Shown: piece after piece, positions 6,567 to 30,103 of the stretch | Layout of the letters: each line of letters opens with the position of its first letter | Numbering within the stretch: position 1 is the stretch's first letter | IMG/VR virus record: IMGVR_UViG_3300013767_000192 | Location: 1-33,129 of that record | DNA length: 33,129 bases | Direction: 5' to 3' (one strand) | Source of the DNA: a virus | Lineage: Duplodnaviria; Caudoviricetes | Made by a program: the position numbers and the translations under genes | Notes under the pieces: generated by a model | What the model saw: the letters and a program-made list of their open reading frames with translations, nothing else | The model's database searches: none | Told to the model about the DNA's origin: nothing

Positions 6567-7151
6567 ATGTCCAGACAAACACGCGCTCGGATCTGCGGCT
6601 TGCTTCTCCTGACCTTCGCGCTCGGCTGCGGTCGACAGAGCGCCAAATACGAAACAGCGAAAGATCGAGAGATCCAGCTCGCAAACGATCTGAAGATCAG
6701 CGCATCGAAGTTCCTGTCCGAGAACCCGATACCCATCGACGCCTACGTCAACGCCGTGGGCTGCGTCGATCGTTGCTACGCGCAGGCGTGGGACCAGATG
6801 GACGGCTTGACCGAGATGCGCGCCGACGAGCCGCACTTCAACCAGGCAGTGCTCGAGCTCATCGAGGAGCAGGGACGAAGGTGCAGCGCTCGCTGCGCGC
6901 CGCGCGGGAAGCGTGACGGCTGCGCGGCGATCGCGACCTCCTACGACAACTGCGACGGTGAGGCGCTCGGTGCGCTGCACCCCTGTGACACGATGAGCTG
7001 GCTGAAGGCTCGCCAATGCTGCTCGGACCGCGTGCTCTCGGGTCCGATCTGCGATGCGGCGAGCGGGACGCTCCCGGGCTACGCGGCGATCCTTCCGCAT
7101 CTTCCGTCGATGGTCCTCACCGCCCTTCGCCACCACACGCCGAACGAGTGA
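6567..7151 (+). CDS. Cys-rich lipoprotein, antisense accessory gene (194 aa)
   Basis: GAGGTGG at 6551-6557, ATG 6567; basic N-terminus, hydrophobic stretch and lipobox FALG-C; 10 further Cys; fills the gap between tape measure and N-like genes. Confidence 0.78.
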   Translation: MSRQTRARICGLLLLTFALGCGRQSAKYETAKDREIQLANDLKISASKFLSENPIPIDAYVNAVGCVDRCYAQAWDQMDGLTEMRADEPHFNQAVLELIEEQGRRCSARCAPRGKRDGCAAIATSYDNCDGEALGALHPCDTMSWLKARQCCSDRVLSGPICDAASGTLPGYAAILPHLPSMVLTALRHHTPNE

Positions 7152-9607: not shown

Positions 9608-9988
9608 TCAGGCAATGCGAAGAAGCTCGGCCGCAACGAAGTTCACGGTCGTCTCGGTGTCGCCGGCCTCGGGCGTGTTCGACAGATCATCGTCCGAGAG
9701 GTGGCAGCCGTAGCAGGCCCACCGCTCGGCGCCCTTCGGGAAAGTGATCGTGAAACCCTCCTCCGAGTCGGAGAGCGCCTGCAAATCGATCTCGAGCCCG
9801 ACCTTCGGCACCGCAAGCGTCAACGCGCCGGTGACCTTGTAGAAGCCCTTGGCGGTGCCGATCGGACCGAACGCGCCGAACTTCACCGTGACTTGCCTCG
9901 CCCGCTTGATTGACACCTTGGTAATCGATGCGACAGCAACATTGTTCACCTCGATCGGGACTTGGCCTACGAGCGGGTTAAACGGCAT
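9608..9988 (-). CDS. Tail tube protein (126 aa)
   Basis: Beta-rich, typical size, downstream of sheath and upstream of chaperone. Confidence 0.8.
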   Translation of the reverse strand: MPFNPLVGQVPIEVNNVAVASITKVSIKRARQVTVKFGAFGPIGTAKGFYKVTGALTLAVPKVGLEIDLQALSDSEEGFTITFPKGAERWACYGCHLSDDDLSNTPEAGDTETTVNFVAAELLRIA

Positions 9989-10469
9989 GTTTCCCTGCTT
10001 TCGGCGGCGGATCAGCCGCCTGTGCGATCTCCTCCTCGATCCGGAGGTGATGGCGCAGCTTGGTCCTTACACGATGGCAGCAAGCGCAGACGACGTCGCA
10101 CTTCCCGATCTCCGCAAGGAGTTCATTGTCGACGTCGATCCGGTCGGAGATCTCGAACTTCTTGAGCTCGCCGTCTCGGTGGTCGAAATCCATCGCGCAC
10201 GTCGGAAAGCACCTGCCGCAATCGGCGCACGCGACCGCTTTCAGGCGATCGACGAATTCGTGGAACTGCCGCCTCTTCTCGCGTCGCTCGCTTCGGAAGT
10301 AGTGCCGGTTTTCAGATCGCCACCGAGCGATCTTCTCTACGTTGGCAGCGCGGTACACTTGACTTCGCTCGCGCGCGCAGCGCTTGCACTGCGAATCGAT
10401 GCGCCCGTTGCGCCGAGCACAGAACTCACGCTGATCGCCCTGGCGACCGCATCTTGTACACCGCTTCAC
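9978..10469 (-). CDS. HNH-family endonuclease with N-terminal zinc finger
   Basis: CTRC...CKRC, then CADC...MDFDH...EIGKCDVVCACCHRVRT; GTG start. Confidence 0.8.
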   Translation of the reverse strand: MKRCTRCGRQGDQREFCARRNGRIDSQCKRCARERSQVYRAANVEKIARWRSENRHYFRSERREKRRQFHEFVDRLKAVACADCGRCFPTCAMDFDHRDGELKKFEISDRIDVDNELLAEIGKCDVVCACCHRVRTKLRHHLRIEEEIAQAADPPPKAGKHAV

Positions 10470-20717: not shown

Positions 20718-22331
20718 TCAATAGAAGTCGCTGCCCCGTCGCTTGAAGCGCACGATCTTGATGTCGGCCGGCGCGATCTCGATCGGGTCGGTCGGCTTGG
20801 GCTCGAGAAAATAGATGGCGTAGCCGGCAGCGTCGGTGATGTGCGAGTGCTTGCCGTAGGGCTTCCGCTTTCCGAAGCGGTTGTTCCCGAGCGGACACTC
20901 CCTGAACGATTCGATCAGCCACTTGCAACGTGGATCGACTCGCAGCCGGCCAGCCTCCATGAGGCGGTACATGATCCCGAGCCGCTGGTCGACGTCGGGA
21001 TTTTTCGGGTGTCGCGAGCGGTCGGGGCGCTTGATCTCTGTCGGGGCCTGCACGTTCCAGCGCTGCGACCGCAGCGCGTCGTACGAGGTGGTGTTCCCCG
21101 AGTGCTTCGCGTCTTGAAAGCTGCCCGAAGCGTCGGGCACCCAGAGCAGGGTCTCGGGCGTGTAGCCGTGGGCGTATGCCTCGTCCGAGAGGTGGAGCTC
21201 CGTACCCTCGACGATCAGCTCATCGACGAACCAGTAGATCGGGCCGTCGTCGCCGGCGAATATTCGCAGGACGGCGCCGGCCTGGTGCGGGCGGCCCTGG
21301 AAGTCCGCGCCGGCGACGAACCTGTACCGCACGAAGGTGAGCCGCTCGAGCGTGGGCGCCGTGATTTCCTTGGGGCTGATCTCGGGCGTCTTCTCGACGA
21401 GCTTCTTCGACCACTTCGGATAGGCGCGATCGCCGACCGGAAGCCACAGTCCCTCGTCGTCCGCCTTCGCCGCTCGCGGATCGAGCAGGCGCAGGATCTC
21501 ACCAACACGCTCGCGCGCCGGCTGGTCGACGCAGGTGTTGTCCTTGGACGAAAATCCAAAGTAGCGCGCGCCTTGGACGGCTCGCTCGTCGATCGCCTGC
21601 TTCAGGTGGAAGACCCACTCGCCGATGGTTCGCCTCGGCGGGTTGGCGGCCAAAAGCGCGATGCCGCCTTTGTCGGCGGTGCCGTAGATGCCGTTCGACA
21701 GAGCCGCGATCGGGATCTTCTGCGCCTCGTTGTAGAGCACGCAGTCGACCCGGCCGCGCTTGAGGCTCTCGGGATCGTCGGCCGAGACGTTCCTGAGCGA
21801 CGAGCCGTGCGCGAACGTGTAGCGAAACTCGGGCGCCTTCCGGTGCGTGTACCAGGCGGGCGGAATGTATTCGCGGATGATCTTATCGAGCTCGTCGCGC
21901 TCCTGGTAGCTCGCCGAGACCACCCAGCCCACCGTCGGCGAGCCGCCGTCGATGGGGATCGCGGGCACATCGATGAGGAGCGCCAGCGCGCACACGAGCA
22001 GGTTGAACGTCTTGCCGCCGCGCCGTTCGCCGGCCGCCAGCGCCAGCGAGCAGTCGCGAGGGCGTCCCTCGCGAAGGTCGCACAGGAACCCGGCGAACCA
22101 GCGCGTGAACTCGATCTGCGACTCCTCGAGATCGATCACATGAAAGCGCGGCCGTTCGCCAGTGAACCGCTTCTCAATCCGGTCCCATCTTCCCCCCGCC
22201 GCCAGCAAGATCTCCTTCGTCGTTCGGCGGCGCAGCAGCAGCGCCAGGTCGAGCATCCGGCTCTCGCTCCGCGTCACCCGCTCCAAGTCGTGAAGTCGGC
22301 GGGAGGGCTCCGTGGAATTCTTCGAGCTCAT
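20718..22331 (-). CDS. terL: Terminase large subunit (start uncertain)
   Basis: Walker A GERRGGKT, SLKRG, Walker B-like VLYNE, ANPP coupling motif, nuclease GADF and HITDAAGY. Confidence 0.92.
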   Translation of the reverse strand: MSSKNSTEPSRRLHDLERVTRSESRMLDLALLLRRRTTKEILLAAGGRWDRIEKRFTGERPRFHVIDLEESQIEFTRWFAGFLCDLREGRPRDCSLALAAGERRGGKTFNLLVCALALLIDVPAIPIDGGSPTVGWVVSASYQERDELDKIIREYIPPAWYTHRKAPEFRYTFAHGSSLRNVSADDPESLKRGRVDCVLYNEAQKIPIAALSNGIYGTADKGGIALLAANPPRRTIGEWVFHLKQAIDERAVQGARYFGFSSKDNTCVDQPARERVGEILRLLDPRAAKADDEGLWLPVGDRAYPKWSKKLVEKTPEISPKEITAPTLERLTFVRYRFVAGADFQGRPHQAGAVLRIFAGDDGPIYWFVDELIVEGTELHLSDEAYAHGYTPETLLWVPDASGSFQDAKHSGNTTSYDALRSQRWNVQAPTEIKRPDRSRHPKNPDVDQRLGIMYRLMEAGRLRVDPRCKWLIESFRECPLGNNRFGKRKPYGKHSHITDAAGYAIYFLEPKPTDPIEIAPADIKIVRFKRRGSDFY

Positions 22332-22956
22332 CGGCGTCGTCTTGTCCGGCTCCGAGGAGGCGCCCCTCGATCGCGTCCAGCTTCGCCTCGACCAGCGCCT
22401 TGGCGTGCGTCATGCCGAGCTTGGCGACCAGGTCGGCGACCAAGCGCGTCTTCCGCTCGGGCTCGATCGACGGGTTGCGCATGACCTCGTCGAGCTGAAG
22501 GACGAGGCAGCGCTGGCCCCAGACGAGCGCTTGCGTCGGATCCGAGGGCGGCGGGCCGAGCTCGGCCACGCGCGCCTCGCGCTCCGGATCGAACTGCGCG
22601 AACGCGCCCGACATCTCGGCGAGGAGGCGCAGCGTCGACGTCGCGGCGGTCCACGGTCTGTCCGTTTTCGTGGTGCCGTCGGGCAGCGTGACGGTGTCTC
22701 CCCGCATCGCGAGCGCGTAGTGCCGCTCCACCATGCGGATGAGCTTCTCGCGCCGGTGTGGCGCATCCTCGAGGTTCTCCTCGCGCCAGCGTCCGTAGAC
22801 CTTCTGCCGCAGGTTGCGCGCTTGGCGAACGGAAATGCCGTGCTTCTGTGCGAGCGCGCGGTCGACCTGCCCGGGCGGGAGCCCCGCTGCCAGGCGATCT
22901 TCGATCTCGTCGAGCCGCGACTGAAGGAGCGGCCCACGCGAGCCGGCGCCCGACAT
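22174..22956 (-). CDS. Probable terminase small subunit (N-terminal HTH)
   Basis: ATG 22956 overlaps the methylase stop; HTH-like LAQKHGISVRQARNL; immediately upstream of the large subunit. Confidence 0.7.
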   Translation of the reverse strand: MSGAGSRGPLLQSRLDEIEDRLAAGLPPGQVDRALAQKHGISVRQARNLRQKVYGRWREENLEDAPHRREKLIRMVERHYALAMRGDTVTLPDGTTKTDRPWTAATSTLRLLAEMSGAFAQFDPEREARVAELGPPPSDPTQALVWGQRCLVLQLDEVMRNPSIEPERKTRLVADLVAKLGMTHAKALVEAKLDAIEGRLLGAGQDDADELEEFHGALPPTSRLGAGDAEREPDARPGAAAAPPNDEGDLAGGGGKMGPD

Positions 22957-24356
22957 CAGGCCACCGCCCGCTCTTCGGCGATCTCCTCGAACGTGCGCTC
23001 GTCGCCGTCGAGCTTCGCCCTGGCCCCGGTCTGCTTCTGCCACCGATCGACGATCACGTCGCAGTACGCGGGATCGATCTCCATGAGCAGCGCGCAGCGT
23101 TCGGCCTGCTCACAGGCGATCAGCGTCGAACCCGAGCCGCCGAAGAGATCGAGCACGCGATCGCCGCGCTTCGGCGACGAGTACAAGATGGCACGCGACG
23201 CGAGCTCGACGGGCTTCTCCGTCAAATGAATCATCGACTGTGGATTGACCTTCTTCACCGTCCAGACGTCGGTGGCGTTGGTGACCGCGGGGTTGAACCA
23301 GTGCGCGGCGCCTTCCTTCCACGAGTAGAAGCACCACTCGTGGTTGCCCATGAAGTCCTTGCGCGTCAGCACCGGGTGCTCCTTCACCCAGATGATCGAT
23401 TGGGAGAAGTAGAGGCCGGCGGCCGCGATCGCCGGCGGGTAGTTGGTGCAGTTGGCGTAGCCGCCCCAGATGTACGCGCTGCCGCCCGGCACGAGCGCGC
23501 GCGAGAGATTGCCGAACCACGCGAGCAGGAGCTTCTCGAACTCAGCCGGCGGGAGGAAGTCGTTCGCCAGCGGCCGGTCCTTGGCGCGCATCGGGCCCGT
23601 CGGCTGCGACTTCTCGGGATGGCGCGCGAGGTCAAGTCCCTGGTGGTGCATGCCGCGCGAGCGCTGGCGCGGCATCGACTTGCCGGCGACGTCGATCTCG
23701 CCCGAGCGCGCGGCGGCGATCGCGTTGTTCGAGCGCGGCTCGACGCGCACGTTGTACGGCGGATCGGTGTTGGCGAGCTGCACCGGCGCGCCGGCGAGCA
23801 GACGATCGAGATCGGCCGCCACCGCGCTGTCGCCGCACAGCAGGCGGTGCCGCCCGAGGATCCAGAGGTCGCCGGTCCGTGTCGTCGGAACTGGCGGCGG
23901 CGCCATTGCTGGAGCTGGCTCGTCCGTCGATGTCTCGCCGATCAAGTCGACCACGTCGTACGCGGAGAACCCCGTCCCATCGAGGAGGTCGACATTCTGC
24001 TCGCGCAGCTCGGCGAGCAACTCGGCGAGCTTGTCGTCATCCCACGTCGCGATCTCACCGAGCTTGTTGTCGGCGACGGCGAGCAGGTGCGCATCGGCCG
24101 GATCGAGCTTGAGGAACCGGACCGGCACGCGGTCGAGCCCGAGCTGCTTCGCCGCCAAGAGGCGCGTGTGCCCAGCGATGACTTCGCCGTCCTGCTCGCG
24201 TGCAACAATCGGCGACGACCACCCGAACCGCTTGATGGCGCGGGCGACCTCGTCGACGGCCTTGGCGTTCTTGCGCGGGTTCCCGGGCCACGGGCGCAGG
24301 CGGTCGATCGGCACCCAGACCGCGGCCGGCTCCAGCGCTGTATCGGATGCGTTCAT
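22956..24356 (-). CDS. ParB-like N-terminal domain + N6/N4 DNA methyltransferase (start 24356 or 24425)
   Basis: NPRKN...IAGHTRLLAA ParB/Srx motif; HRLLCGDS, TDPPY, KPVEL, LDLFGGSGST motifs. Confidence 0.95.
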   Translation of the reverse strand: MNASDTALEPAAVWVPIDRLRPWPGNPRKNAKAVDEVARAIKRFGWSSPIVAREQDGEVIAGHTRLLAAKQLGLDRVPVRFLKLDPADAHLLAVADNKLGEIATWDDDKLAELLAELREQNVDLLDGTGFSAYDVVDLIGETSTDEPAPAMAPPPVPTTRTGDLWILGRHRLLCGDSAVAADLDRLLAGAPVQLANTDPPYNVRVEPRSNNAIAAARSGEIDVAGKSMPRQRSRGMHHQGLDLARHPEKSQPTGPMRAKDRPLANDFLPPAEFEKLLLAWFGNLSRALVPGGSAYIWGGYANCTNYPPAIAAAGLYFSQSIIWVKEHPVLTRKDFMGNHEWCFYSWKEGAAHWFNPAVTNATDVWTVKKVNPQSMIHLTEKPVELASRAILYSSPKRGDRVLDLFGGSGSTLIACEQAERCALLMEIDPAYCDVIVDRWQKQTGARAKLDGDERTFEEIAEERAVA

Positions 24357-24640
24357 GAGCAGGCTCGTGGGAGGTCGTGAACGGTGCAAACGGTTACCGA
24401 CCGGTAGCCGGAGGCGCGCGCCCATTTCCTCTTTTCAGCGGCGCGGAGACGTTCGGAGGGCGCCAAGTTATCGTCACAACGACGCTTTCGCGTCGGACGG
24501 GGCCGCGCGGGAGAGGAAATGAGAGGAAATGGGGCGGCGCTGCCAGCTCACTGCGCCGGATTTTTTTGGCCCCTTACGTGCGGAGGATTTTGTGCAAGCG
24601 ATTGCGGCGCCCGCAGTTGTTCCGCGCCCAATAAATTCGC

Positions 24641-24668
24641 TTGATGCGCCCGCCACCGACGGTAGTGT
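24641..24668 (+). promoter_or_regulatory. Sigma-70-like promoter, possibly giving a leaderless mRNA
   Basis: TTGATG-N16-TAGTGT, 8 nt before ATG 24677; no Shine-Dalgarno; AT-richer tract upstream. Confidence 0.45.
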
Positions 24669-24676
24669 GCGCCGCC

Positions 24677-25114
24677 ATGGACAACGAATGCGACCCGACC
24701 GTTCCCGATCTTCGTCCCACGCCTTGGCTCGCGCGCATCAACCTGCGAGGTCAGGCGCGCCTCCTTCTCGTCACGATCCCGCTGACCATCGCGATCGGCT
24801 GGTGGGCTTCGCGTGGCAACGAAGACTGCGCCAAAGGGATCCTCGAGGACACGCTCGGCGTGCCGTCGTCCGCGCGCTACGTCTCGTTCGACGTGCTGGC
24901 GAAGCAAGACCACTGGCGGATGCAGCGGGTGGTCTTCGAGGTCGGCGATTCCCGATACGGCATGTGCCTCACCTATCGCCTCGAGGACGGCCAGTACAAA
25001 TGGCGCCGCAACGAGGGCGTTCGCGACTGCGACACGCCGCCGACGGCAGATGAGATCGCGCGCCTGAAGCGGCTCAACGGCTGGCCCGGCCTCGCCACCG
25101 CTTCCGCCGATTGA
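24677..25114 (+). CDS. Membrane-anchored hypothetical protein, antisense accessory gene (145 aa)
   Basis: One TM segment (LLLVTIPLTIAIGWW) followed by a soluble domain with Cys; high GC3 in this frame. Confidence 0.72.
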   Translation: MDNECDPTVPDLRPTPWLARINLRGQARLLLVTIPLTIAIGWWASRGNEDCAKGILEDTLGVPSSARYVSFDVLAKQDHWRMQRVVFEVGDSRYGMCLTYRLEDGQYKWRRNEGVRDCDTPPTADEIARLKRLNGWPGLATASAD

Positions 25115-25301
25115 CGCTCCCGCGGTGCTTGCGCTCCGAGCGCCGCGTCCATCGCGGCTCGGCGCGCTTGTTCGTGCGCCCGTCCGCGCGGTCGTGCCGG
25201 ATCGCCACCCGGTGCAGGACGAAGCCGGTCCCGCCCGCGACGAGCACGCCCGAGAGCGAGAGCAGGATTGCGAGCAGATGCATGTGCAGGAACTCGATCA
25301 T
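25074..25301 (-). CDS. Single-TM protein with highly basic tail (holin-like candidate)
   Basis: GAGGTG RBS, ATGA overlap with rusA; LLAILLSLSGVLVAGGTGFVL then Arg/Lys-rich tail. Confidence 0.55.
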   Translation of the reverse strand: MIEFLHMHLLAILLSLSGVLVAGGTGFVLHRVAIRHDRADGRTNKRAEPRWTRRSERKHRGSVNRRKRWRGRASR

Positions 25302-25684
25302 GGCTCACCTCGTTCGGTTGTGATTTCGACCTCGACGCGTGGCGCGGAGGCGTCCTTGCAGAGACGAGAGCCGTCCCAGCTCTGGATCAGACGATCGTTA
25401 CCGACCACGCCCGCCGCCTCGAGCGCGTCGGCGAGCGCCTCCAAGTAGTTCACGAGGTCGCCGACGCTCCGCTCGCGATAGAACTTCGCCTTCACCGCGA
25501 CGGGGCCGATGAGCGGCGGCTCGTGCCATTGCGACCGGAGCTGCGGGATCGCCAAGCGAGCCCAGGTCTCGTGCGCGGCCGACGGCAGCACGCGCAGCCG
25601 GCGGCCCGCGCGCACGATCCGATTGCTGGTCTTCTTCGTCCGGGGCGCACCGAAGACGATGAGCTTGATCGGTTCGGGCCGCAC
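25298..25684 (-). CDS. rusA: RusA-family Holliday junction resolvase
   Basis: GAPRTKKTS, GPVAVKAKFY, DLVNYLEALADALEAAGVVGNDRLI, PRVEVEI. Confidence 0.88.
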   Translation of the reverse strand: MRPEPIKLIVFGAPRTKKTSNRIVRAGRRLRVLPSAAHETWARLAIPQLRSQWHEPPLIGPVAVKAKFYRERSVGDLVNYLEALADALEAAGVVGNDRLIQSWDGSRLCKDASAPRVEVEITTERGEP

Positions 25685-25691
25685 GAGCGAG

Positions 25692-26090
25692 CTACCAGGT
25701 CACGCCGTCGACGCTGACCTCATCGCCCGCCTGGCCGATGCCGGCCGTCGATCGACCGAGCAGGCGAACCGCGAGAATGCCGCGCACGTCGACGAGAAAT
25801 GAGAACGACGCCGAGACAGATCCTGCCGGCACCGCGAACGTGTGCTCGAGCTCGGTCACGCCATTGTCGTCGCGGCGGCTGACTACGTCCTGCCAGCCGT
25901 TTGGATTGGACGGGTCCTTGGTTCCCTGCCACTTGAGCGCGACGCTCGGCACGGGCGAGCCCGCGCCCAAGCGAACGCGCGCGTGCGTGCGCACGTACTC
26001 CGGCCGGCCGACGTAGAGCGTCGGTCCGGCCGAATAGCTCGGCTGGATCGCGCTGCCGGCTAGATCGAGGAGATGCTCGAGCGGAATCAT
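25692..26090 (-). CDS. Hypothetical all-beta protein (132 aa)
   Basis: ATG 26090 overlaps the patatin stop (ATGA); alternating hydrophobic pattern. Confidence 0.72.
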   Translation of the reverse strand: MIPLEHLLDLAGSAIQPSYSAGPTLYVGRPEYVRTHARVRLGAGSPVPSVALKWQGTKDPSNPNGWQDVVSRRDDNGVTELEHTFAVPAGSVSASFSFLVDVRGILAVRLLGRSTAGIGQAGDEVSVDGVTW

Positions 26091-27109
26091 TGCGCACCGT
26101 CGAGTCGCGCGAGTGCTCGTCGAGCGGCGTCGCGGCCCTCTTCGACGTACGCGCGACGGAGCTCGCGATCGCGCAGCGCCGTCAGCGGATTGCCGGCGAG
26201 CGCCACCTGCGGCTCGATGATCACGATCTCGACCGGGCGCGCGTAACGGAGACCCACCGCCTCCTTGATCTGCCGCAGCTGCAGCTCGCCGAAGCCGTTG
26301 GTCCCGGCGAGCCGCTCGACAGCGGCGAGTTGGCGGTTGATCTCGGCCGCCTCGTTCAGATCGCGGTTGAGCCGCTCGGTGATGAGGATGTCGATGATGT
26401 GCGCCGCCAGCTGGCAGCCGGAAAGGTGGCTCGTCTCCGCGACCGACGGAGACGGCCGGATGACGAAGATGCGATCGATTTCCGGATCTTCGAGCGCCTG
26501 GCGGATCGGCGTGTTGTTCACGATCCCGCCGTCGACGCACTCGCGTTGGCGCACCACGACCGGCGCGAAGATGCCCGGCACCGCTGCGGACGCCGCCGCG
26601 ACGTGCGCCATCTCGGCGACACGCTCGGGGTACTCGAAGTCGAGCCCGCGGTAGCCGATCACGCTCTCGTGCGTCGTCGTGATGGTCAGGCCCGTGCCCC
26701 ATGAATCGATGCCCTCGAGGTCGGTGAGCACGATCCGCAGGTCCACGTCGCGGCGCGCGCCTGGCAGGTACGCCACGAGGTGCGCGCGAATCAGCTCCTC
26801 GAGCTTGTGCGAGCGCGACAGCCCTCGCCCGCGCGCGAGGTCGCGGAGGCTCAGCTCGATGAAGTTCCACCACTCGGCGTGCTCCGCCCAGAACAGCGCC
26901 AGCTCCTCGGCGGCGTCGCGCTCCTTGCCCGCGCGGATCGCCGCCGCGTAGTAGACCGCGTTGAGCGCGCCCGAGCTCGATCCGACGACGCGCGCGATCG
27001 GAACGCCCGCCTCGGCGAGCGCGGCACACGCGCCGGCCTCGAACGCGCCCTTGGCGAGCGCGCCCGAGAGCACGAGCGCGCTGCGGCGCGGTTGAGTCAC
27101 GGTGAGCAT
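26087..27109 (-). CDS. Patatin-like phospholipase (start 27109 preferred over 27214)
   Basis: ALVLSGALAKGAFEAG oxyanion loop, GSSSG nucleophile, ASAAVPGIF, DGG catalytic Asp. Confidence 0.93.
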   Translation of the reverse strand: MLTVTQPRRSALVLSGALAKGAFEAGACAALAEAGVPIARVVGSSSGALNAVYYAAAIRAGKERDAAEELALFWAEHAEWWNFIELSLRDLARGRGLSRSHKLEELIRAHLVAYLPGARRDVDLRIVLTDLEGIDSWGTGLTITTTHESVIGYRGLDFEYPERVAEMAHVAAASAAVPGIFAPVVVRQRECVDGGIVNNTPIRQALEDPEIDRIFVIRPSPSVAETSHLSGCQLAAHIIDILITERLNRDLNEAAEINRQLAAVERLAGTNGFGELQLRQIKEAVGLRYARPVEIVIIEPQVALAGNPLTALRDRELRRAYVEEGRDAARRALARLDGAQ

Positions 27110-27126
27110 CGATCGATTCGGGGTGA

Positions 27127-27498
27127 TCAGGCGGACGCGCGATGCTTCGTCGGGCGAGACCGTTTGCGGCGTGCTGCGTTCTCGTCGGCCCTGAGCCGCA
27201 GCATCGCGCGCCACTCGCGACGCCGCTTCTCGGCCGCCTGTTGCTCGCGCGCGCGGCGCGACTTGCGAAGATCGCGACAGGTCAGGACGGCGCGATGAGC
27301 GGCGTTGATCTCGTCGAGGTGCTCGGCGGTCCAGAAGATGGTCGGCCCTTCGTGCAGAGCGAACCCGAGCTCATAGGAGCGGAACCAGCCCGGCACCTCG
27401 ACGAACGCGGGGATGTACAGTGCGCCGTTGCCGCCGCCGGCCTGGTGCGAGACCAGCCACTCCAGCCATGCGACCTTGACGAAGCGACGAAAGTTCAC
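27127..27498 (-). CDS. Hypothetical protein (123 aa, basic C-terminal helix)
   Basis: GGAGG RBS with GTG start; co-oriented, non-overlapping. Confidence 0.7.
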   Translation of the reverse strand: MNFRRFVKVAWLEWLVSHQAGGGNGALYIPAFVEVPGWFRSYELGFALHEGPTIFWTAEHLDEINAAHRAVLTCRDLRKSRRAREQQAAEKRRREWRAMLRLRADENAARRKRSRPTKHRASA

Positions 27499-27624: not shown

Positions 27625-28110
27625 CTATTTTTCGATGCTGTCGATGACGCGCTGAACGTGCGTGCGCGAGCAGCCAAGCCGTCTGGCGAGACGGCGAACC
27701 GTGTAGGCGCGCCGGCGGTACTTCACGCCGCGGCTGCGCCCGTCCTTGTCCTTGTAGGCGACTGCGATCCGTTCGCCCTCGACAATCAACCGGACGATCT
27801 CGGTCATGAGCGGCGTGACCGGCGTCAGTGGGCGATCTTGCTGCTCGCGCAGGCGAAGATTTGCGTCGTCCAGTGATTCGGCGTTCTCGTCGGGCAGCTC
27901 GTCACGCCCGATCACCCACTCCGCGTTTTCAGCGCGAGCGTGGCACTCCGGGCAGACCTTGTTCGTGTCGTGCCTGCCGATGCGTCCGGTCTTGGCGTCG
28001 TAGGAGCAGATCGCGCAATCGCGTCGGCCGTGGTTCCGCGCATACGCGAGGGCGCAAGCGTTCGAGCACAGCCAGAAGCTCGACTCCACTCCGCACTCCA
28101 CGCACGTCAT
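27625..28110 (-). CDS. Zinc-finger + C-terminal HTH protein, candidate late transcription regulator
   Basis: ATG 28110 (ATGA overlap, GGAGG RBS); CxxC/CxxxC pairs; YTVRRLARRLGCSRTHVQRVI HTH. Confidence 0.78.
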   Translation of the reverse strand: MTCVECGVESSFWLCSNACALAYARNHGRRDCAICSYDAKTGRIGRHDTNKVCPECHARAENAEWVIGRDELPDENAESLDDANLRLREQQDRPLTPVTPLMTEIVRLIVEGERIAVAYKDKDGRSRGVKYRRRAYTVRRLARRLGCSRTHVQRVIDSIEK

Positions 28111-28799: not shown

Positions 28800-28848
28800 C
28801 GCGTTCTCCTTCCTGCTCGACGAGACTCGAAACGTGGGGGCTGCCGGC

Positions 28849-29077
28849 GCTCCCCGAACGGGGAGCAGCAGATGCTTCCAAGTCGGGGAGCACGAGGTCG
28901 CCCGAGGACTGCTCCCCGGCGATCTCGGATTCGTGCTGCTCCCCGCTCCCCTTATAGGGGGAGCGGGGAGCACTGCTCCGGGAGCGCTCCGGGAGCACGG
29001 GGAGCAACTGCTCCGGGAGCGCTCCGGGAGCAACGGGAGCACTGCTCCGGGAGCGCTCCGGGAACAACGGGGAGCAG
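28849..29077. repeat. Palindromic direct/inverted repeat cluster, candidate replication origin
   Basis: Three copies of CTGCTCCGGGAGCGCTCCGGGA at about 34-bp period (28973-29063); perfect 15-bp inverted repeat 28937-28972 with TTATAG loop; more GGGGAGC/GCTCCCC copies at 28849-28917. Confidence 0.85.
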
Positions 29078-29086
29078 TAAGACGGC

Positions 29087-30103
29087 TCACCTTCGCACCC
29101 CCTTCCAGATCTCCCAGAAGAGGTCGTTTCGGACCCTCAGGCCGAGCTTTCGGAGGTGCTCTTGACACTCGCGCCCGCTCGCGCTCGGGTGGCCGAACTT
29201 GAACGCGATGATCGTCTCCTCGATCGCCTCGTCGCGGTTCTCCTTCGCCGTCTCGCGCTCCCCGACGACGAGGCGCAGCGTCGCGCCGTCGTCGGCGTGG
29301 CCGTCCTCGACGGAGAACTGGAACGGCTGTCCAGGCGGGCCACCACGGTTCTCGATGCGGAAGACCTCGGTCGTGAGCTCGTCAGGAGCGCGCGCGTACA
29401 AGTTGAAATCGCCGAACGCGTTGAAGTCCGTCGAGCCGCGCGACTCGCCGAGCTTGTTCGCGTGGTGCGCGATCACGAACACCGCGCGTGGACACGATCG
29501 CGCGAGCGTCCGCAGGAACGAATGAATCGGGCCGAGCTCGTTGGCGCGGTTGTCGTCGATCGAGTGCAGGCGGACGAACGGATCGAGCCAGCAGAACGCC
29601 AGATCGTCTACGGCCTGCAGCGTCGCTGCGAGTCGCGCCTGATGCTCGAGGTTGTCGAGCGCGAGCGCCGGCACGTCGATGAGGTACAGCTTCTCGGGAA
29701 CCTCGACGCCGCGTGCGCGCGCCAGCCGATGGACGCGCCGCGACGTCTCGCCCTTCGGATCTTCGGCGAAGAAGCCGACCGCGGTGCCGGTGTGCTCGAC
29801 GGCGTAGGCGCCGAGCGCGTCGGTGCCAGTGGTAACCGAGAGCGCGACGTCGGCGAGCATCAGGCTCTTTCGCGCCTTGGCGGGGCCGAACAAGTAGCCC
29901 GCCGTTCCGTCGTCGCCGTAGCGCGGGATGAGCCCGCGCACGAGCCACTTCTGCTCGGCGATCTCGGCGACGTCACGCACGGAGACGAGTGGAAATCCAG
30001 CTGACGCCCCACCAGCATCCAGCGGCATCGGCTCGGCACCTTCCAGCGCCGCAACGCGCGCGCCGTCGCGGTAGCTCGACGAGATGTCGGCGCCGCCGCT
30101 CAT
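29087..30103 (-). CDS. AAA_25 / RepA-like (RecA-fold) replicative helicase
   Basis: KWLVRGLIP, GPAKARKS, FFAED, WLDPF, IAHHANK, RGSTDF. Confidence 0.88.
   Translation of the reverse strand: MSGGADISSSYRDGARVAALEGAEPMPLDAGGASAGFPLVSVRDVAEIAEQKWLVRGLIPRYGDDGTAGYLFGPAKARKSLMLADVALSVTTGTDALGAYAVEHTGTAVGFFAEDPKGETSRRVHRLARARGVEVPEKLYLIDVPALALDNLEHQARLAATLQAVDDLAFCWLDPFVRLHSIDDNRANELGPIHSFLRTLARSCPRAVFVIAHHANKLGESRGSTDFNAFGDFNLYARAPDELTTEVFRIENRGGPPGQPFQFSVEDGHADDGATLRLVVGERETAKENRDEAIEETIIAFKFGHPSASGRECQEHLRKLGLRVRNDLFWEIWKGVRR

Follow-up and report, generated by a model that had tools for sequence, protein, structure and literature searches.

A losable patatin gene within a conserved late module of Mu-like prophages: a possible aid to phage release

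Introduction

An endolysin gene is expected in tailed phages that infect walled bacteria, and in lambdoid phages the holin, endolysin and spanin genes occupy a cassette in the late region. At the corresponding place, the prophage described here carries a gene for a patatin-like phospholipase, which raises the question of whether the patatin is the means by which the phage leaves its host, an aid to it, or cargo unrelated to lysis. The window, that is, the whole stretch of DNA that was analysed, is the entire 33,129-nt record of a provirus (G000; CheckV completeness 44%). It is cut at the stop codon of the tail-fibre gene and at the start of a small ORF, and comes from a source contig of 133,200 nt. 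A first-pass annotation had proposed that the phage may exit by a phospholipase route, with a β-protein coupled to the patatin as inhibitor or activator, and had named a defence effector or a captured host lipase as alternatives.

Results

The Late Module and Its Surroundings

G000 encodes a Mu-like head, a contractile tail and a baseplate, and a replication block consisting of Sak4, SSB, primase and helicase (Pfam and PHROGs). Lambdoid traits are confined to the replication genes and the layout of the late operon; the virion module is Mu-like. Judging from sequence relationships, the host is likely a member of the Myxococcota, because the nearest genomic relatives of the patatin are myxobacterial and a Myxococcales MAG contains the closest prophage known from a genome.

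The ORF map confirmed five minus-strand genes in the order previously described, ahead of the methylase and terminase genes: a 123-aa protein (27127–27498), the patatin (26087–27109), the β-protein (25692–26090), the RusA resolvase (25298–25684; PF05866, E = 3.7e-6) and a transmembrane (TM)/basic protein (25074–25301). The ATGA overlap between the patatin and β-protein genes is present in the sequence, and a second overlap (GTGA/ATG) joins the RusA and TM genes. The module is a real feature and not an artefact. Comparison with the relatives G001 and G002 places RusA outside it, since RusA lies upstream of the module in both. Upstream of the module in G000 is a Zn-finger/HTH protein (27625–28110, minus strand; weak HTH matches), with two partial homologues in G002, which is likely a late regulator. 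Downstream follow a ParB–DNA methylase (22956–24425, minus strand; Pfam, PHROGs) and the terminase genes (20718–22956, minus strand), of which the large subunit matches phrog_2 and the likely small subunit is assigned from position and conservation. On the plus strand, a membrane-anchored ORF (24641–25114) overlaps the end of the TM gene by 41 nt; it has a 90% match in G003 and no counterpart was found in G001 or G002, and we list it as variable cargo.

G000 and G001 are 90% identical in the portal, 93% in the capsid protein and 84% in the β-protein; identity is lower in the N-terminal half of the terminase (72%), the small subunit (41%) and the methylase (41%). These values suggest that the packaging block (20718–22956 plus the methylase) was swapped relative to G001. 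In G002, a 7-deazaguanine set replaces the methylase before the terminase (L073, 1–1867; L083, 1485–4517), with ParB, TGT-like, QueD, QueE, FolE and QueC members.

Other features lie elsewhere in the window. An HNH endonuclease gene (9978–10469, minus strand) is inserted between the sheath and tube genes and had no counterpart found in G001 or G002. A Cys-rich, lipoprotein-like ORF (6570–7151, plus strand) lies on the opposite strand between the tape-measure and gp43-like genes; it matched no family, has a clear homologue in G001 (L072, 8113–8694) and is a candidate moron acting in exclusion or at the surface. Beyond the helicase gene, at 28800–29087, short GC-rich units recur; they were noticed in translation only and possibly mark a replication origin.

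Proteins Encoded by the Module

The first gene of the module encodes a basic helical protein of 123 aa, conserved in G001 and G002 and found in 21 homologue rows. Its structure model was all-helical (pTM 0.39), and no enzyme fold was seen in it. The TM protein (75 aa) has a single TM helix at its N-terminus, followed by a basic tail, and both are kept in all three elements read (hydropathy 2.1–2.5; 14–19 K + R in the tail), with 55% and 41% identity to the G000 protein. We consider it a holin-like candidate; it matched no holin or other family in Pfam, PHROGs or NCBIfam, and may just be a membrane protein of an ordinary kind.

The β-protein (132 aa) was modelled confidently as a single jelly roll of the YomS or XepA C-terminal type. 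YomS and XepA were its best solved matches, at 14–15% identity (PDB 6i5o, 6i56). Its structural look-alikes include many unnamed phage proteins, and an Atlas match to PF27453 fell under the bar for naming; the fold is common among phage proteins without an assigned role.

The Patatin and Its Origin

The patatin is a protein of 340 aa that matches PF01734 with an E-value of 4.9e-27 (95.8 bits versus a gathering cut-off of 27.7). Its start is likely the ATG at 27109, where the homologues begin; the GTG at 27214, which gives the longest ORF, was rejected for the same reason. The GxSxG and DGG motifs reported earlier are intact (GALAKG, residues 16–21; GSSSG, 43–47; DGG, 193–195), including Ser45 and Asp193, and no signal-like stretch was found at the N-terminus. 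GSS/AG and DGG are retained in all ten full-length rows of the clade, over 55–100% identity. One other member, P0107, consists of just 172 aa from the C-terminal part.

In a quick tree of 75 rows with a midpoint root, ten close phage-linked sequences, including that of the window, form one branch inside a myxobacterial family (SH-aLRT 97%). The nearest non-phage patatins are solitary chromosomal genes, called NTE/RssA in the source annotations, and no recurring partner was found among 48 flanking genes at 24 of the 25 loci tried. None of the other window proteins was matched at 64 patatin genome loci; the sole further match to window proteins was Sak4 in the viral locus L001. This nesting supports the suggested origin as a captured host lipase, the capture being old.

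NCBIfam cut-offs ruled out an identification of the patatin as CapV, RssA or VpdC. For CapV (NF041079) it scored 19.4 bits against a cut-off of 200, leaving little support for the first-pass alternative of a prophage defence effector that, like CapV, kills the lysogen upon superinfection. The patchy distribution of the gene would suit such a role, as would two PADLOC phospholipase-effector matches, which are weak (E = 3e-6 and 6e-5) and cover ≈44 residues around the DGG motif. However, no cyclase, CD-NTase or sensor was found near the patatin within the window (Pfam, PHROGs, PADLOC), and the gene is embedded in a late operon with no consensus promoter of its own found, in what is a weak test at 68% GC. 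We regard a defence role as very improbable.

Recurrence of the Linkage

Ten close-clade patatins other than that of the window were available for comparison, and a linkage was counted when the longest contigs were of exactly equal size. By this measure, six of the ten match a homologue of the β- or 123-aa protein in contig size, whereas none of 80 more distant patatins does; identity is as low as 57–58% for one of the six. Conversely, among 12 contigs of at least 3 kb with a β- or 123-aa homologue, five matched a patatin and seven did not, two of these seven having been read as DNA. DNA was read for G000–G002, and beyond these the linkage rests on equal contig sizes. This evidence, while indirect, indicates that the association between patatin and module is old and recurrent; the linkage thus probably recurs, and the 6/10 versus 0/80 counts speak against a reading of the patatin as one-off cargo.

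Loss of the Patatin in Close Relatives

In the sister phage G001, codons 20–306 of the patatin are missing in frame (26192–27052 in the alignment with the window, minus strand). The deletion lies near a 9-nt repeat and leaves a remnant of 49 aa, which is known from two assembly sources. One contig in run X1 has a matching skip (26094–27051), and the same run yields a contig of 4,519 nt that is identical to the window. This evidence is not independent of the window, because X1 may be its source. In G001, the β-protein gene is ATGA-coupled to a different ORF of 60 aa, followed by the TM gene.

G002 is more distant (capsid 79%) and is flanked on both sides, with a serine integrase at one end and, at the other, a glycosyltransferase beyond which host genes follow. 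It is the only fully flanked case (1/1), because G001 lacks the integrase end. The order of its module is 123-aa gene, TM gene, β-protein gene, and no patatin or remnant was found across the flanked element. Both G001 and G002 retain full-length virion genes and no decay was seen; the stops present in two alignments were judged to fall at the alignment ends. The TM, jelly-roll and 123-aa genes are conserved despite the loss of the patatin. The retention of the β-protein in both phages speaks against its proposed role as inhibitor or activator of the patatin.

Three genes on the opposite strand lie just upstream of the 123-aa gene in G002 (L083, 5834–9507), encoding a metallophosphoesterase, a lipoprotein-like protein and a protease. 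By the presence of these three unrelated genes, the module region is a hot spot for cargo. The host flank of G002 (L084, 7417–14078) contains several small β-rich ORFs without a Pfam match, beside a GT4/methyltransferase/GT2 fusion gene.

Could the patatin be the essential lytic enzyme of a patatin-plus-holin cassette like that proposed for phage WO, with G001 and G002 being lysis-defective or complemented in trans? The anatomy is similar to the WO proposal (PMC9203015, PMC3173496), and no endolysin was recognised in any element read. What G001 has lost is precisely the catalytic core, as would be expected if a toxic gene were being domesticated, and P0107 likewise retains only the C-terminal piece. 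The intact and deleted forms in run X1 have contig depths of 19.5 and 15.6, compatible with co-residence, but depth is not copy number. The virion genes of G001 and G002 show no decay, however, and G002 has neither a remnant nor the same gene order. Myxobacteria, moreover, possess peptidoglycan, which a phospholipase cannot cut. The WO host is reported to lack it (PMC9203015, PMC3173496). We therefore hold an essential role to be quite improbable.

Another explanation is that the patatin is non-lytic cargo, a host-derived gene for remodelling or mobilising lipids that is kept for fitness, while the jelly-roll protein decorates the virion and release proceeds via unrecognised genes, the host or a helper. 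Such a role would fit the loss of the gene in two of the three elements read, the solitary chromosomal relatives named NTE/RssA, and the large amount of cargo acquired by this group of phages. It would also fit the β-protein, with its common fold and the vertex role suggested for YomS (PMC6834076). The cargo of the group is often on the opposite strand, however, whereas the patatin is within the operon and coupled stop-to-start. It has also been kept across 55–92% divergence, and lysis would be left unexplained. On balance, this explanation is possible, if somewhat unlikely.

Search for Lysis Genes

The first-pass annotation had recognised no endolysin or spanin, and our search of the window agrees: no lysis family was matched by the 41 main ORFs (Pfam, PHROGs), 4 more ORFs, or an additional six-frame set of 122 ORFs with a minimum of 80 aa (PHROGs only). 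Sensitivity is limited, because PHROGs likewise failed to detect the GH75-like lysin candidate in G404, described below. For spanins, there was no family match in the window and no match in a lipobox scan, which was strict and also missed the apparent lipoprotein at 6570–7151. No endolysin, holin or spanin was matched in G001 or in the fully flanked G002 either; the stretches read from these phages are 92–97% tiled by assigned genes, and ORFs in the gaps yielded only QueC.

G404 is a complete, distant relative (terminase 50%) with morphogenesis genes in common. After its tail genes, at L095 6927–8801, are two ORFs resembling membrane proteins or lipoproteins, one with a TM segment and a coiled coil, and one resembling GH75 chitosanases, which scores below the family cut-off. 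This is likely a lysis cluster, and the GH75-like ORF is a candidate endolysin, albeit of an unusual family for the role. No homologues of the cluster were found in G000–G003. The corresponding place in G001 and G002 is taken by a glycosyltransferase: a GT4 gene follows the tail-fibre gene in both (L072, 15263–16349; L082, 6838–7956), and likely lies just outside the window as well. Since the probable lysis cluster of G404 follows the tail genes, lysis genes of this lineage need not occupy the slot before the terminase. The comparison thus weakens the argument from position, and strengthens the case that the G000 group lacks the usual lysin of its lineage.

Discussion

The proposed phospholipase exit route stands in part. 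It is consistent with the leading place in the late operon, the lack of a recognised endolysin in G002, the probably recurrent linkage, the holin-like TM protein and the XepA/YomS fold of the β-protein. It does not account for the deletion of the patatin in G001 and its absence from G002, in which the virion genes are intact and no substitute endolysin was found. Because one close relative has deleted the patatin and another lacks it, the patatin is likely a helper and not the escape mechanism itself. Our tentative preference, which we hold at somewhat short of an even chance, is that the patatin serves, by analogy with LysB, as a dispensable lipolytic aid to a non-canonical release module centred on the TM protein. 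The late transcript would begin with the module, and the conserved TM protein, with its one helix and basic tail, would act as the trigger by depolarising the inner membrane in the manner of a holin. Host autolysins, activated upon depolarisation, would then breach the wall, and hydrolysis of membrane phospholipids by the cytoplasmic patatin would speed the release of virions. The YomS-like β-protein probably serves as a pentameric helper or at the capsid vertex, rather than regulating the patatin.

Several observations count for the LysB-like helper. The module lies between the late regulator and the terminase; the motifs are retained within one clade, with matching contig sizes in 6/10 versus 0/80; and G001 and G002 have full-length virion genes without a patatin, while the TM gene is present in 3/3 elements. 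The modelled fold of the β-protein and the LysB and LytA precedents, discussed below, add support by analogy. Against it count the retention of a phage endolysin in the LytA precedent, the non-toxicity of YomS alone, the lack of a holin family match for the TM protein, the cargo hot spot at the module, the reliance on contig sizes for linkage beyond G000–G002, and the position of the G404 cluster after the tail. The broader proposal that a group of tailed, contractile myxobacterial prophages exits walled Gram-negative cells without endolysin or spanin appears unlikely at present; in it, the TM and jelly-roll proteins would collapse the membrane and trigger host autolysins, and a captured patatin, carried by many members and deleted in one, would complete the destruction of the envelope. 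Were the patatin no more than cargo, the finding would be an ordinary one, and the missing lysis system of the group would still call for an explanation.

Comparison with Known Systems

With CapV of CBASS, ExoU, VipD and PlpD, the patatin shares only the Ser–Asp dyad; unlike these, it has no cyclase partner and no added effector or β-barrel domains, and scores far below the family cut-offs. The resemblance to chromosomal NTE/RssA-like patatins (PF01734) of Myxococcota is closer, with 34–45% full-length identity, the same motifs and enclosing clades. It differs from these in forming a branch of its own, in its place in a late operon and in scoring far below the RssA equivalog cut-off.

LysB of mycobacteriophages has a cutinase-like fold, not that of a patatin. 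As a lipolytic, non-essential lysis helper, it provides a functional model by analogy: LysB mutants are viable and lyse poorly (PMC6116005). Unlike the patatin, LysB accompanies an endolysin and a holin and attacks mycolate esters (PMC6116005). The same source describes a holin that recruits the host autolysin LytA in a phage that still has an endolysin (PMC6116005).

XepA belongs to the lysis cassette of PBSX and is toxic only as a two-domain protein, whereas YomS alone is non-toxic and its authors suggested a role at the capsid vertex (PMC6834076). The β-protein has one domain, like YomS, as opposed to the two-domain dumbbell of XepA; its fold is therefore a hint of a lysis context rather than evidence of lysis. 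It places a XepA/YomS-type protein in a Gram-negative phage.

A patatin-based lytic cassette is already known as a proposal for Wolbachia phage WO (PMC9203015, PMC3173496). What is new here is a phage group without a recognisable endolysin that includes a natural knockout allele of the patatin; the virus tables of a myxophage preprint could include relatives (bioRxiv 10.64898/2026.09.14.751636). Like WO, the window has no recognised canonical endolysin or spanin, and the patatin is near a small protein with a single N-terminal TM helix and a charged tail, two genes lying between them in G000. The cassette precedes the terminase in G000, whereas in WO it is beside the tail module; G000 lacks an ankyrin-TM gene, and the tail of its TM protein shows no evident coiled coil. 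The G000 patatin stems from a myxobacterial clade, in a host that is likely free-living and walled. While the patatin is reported in all tailed WO (PMC9203015, PMC3173496), it can be lost here, as G001 and G002 show. Natural alleles with and without the patatin, set in backbones that are nearly identical, provide a ready comparison for the WO-derived proposal that patatins act in phage exit.
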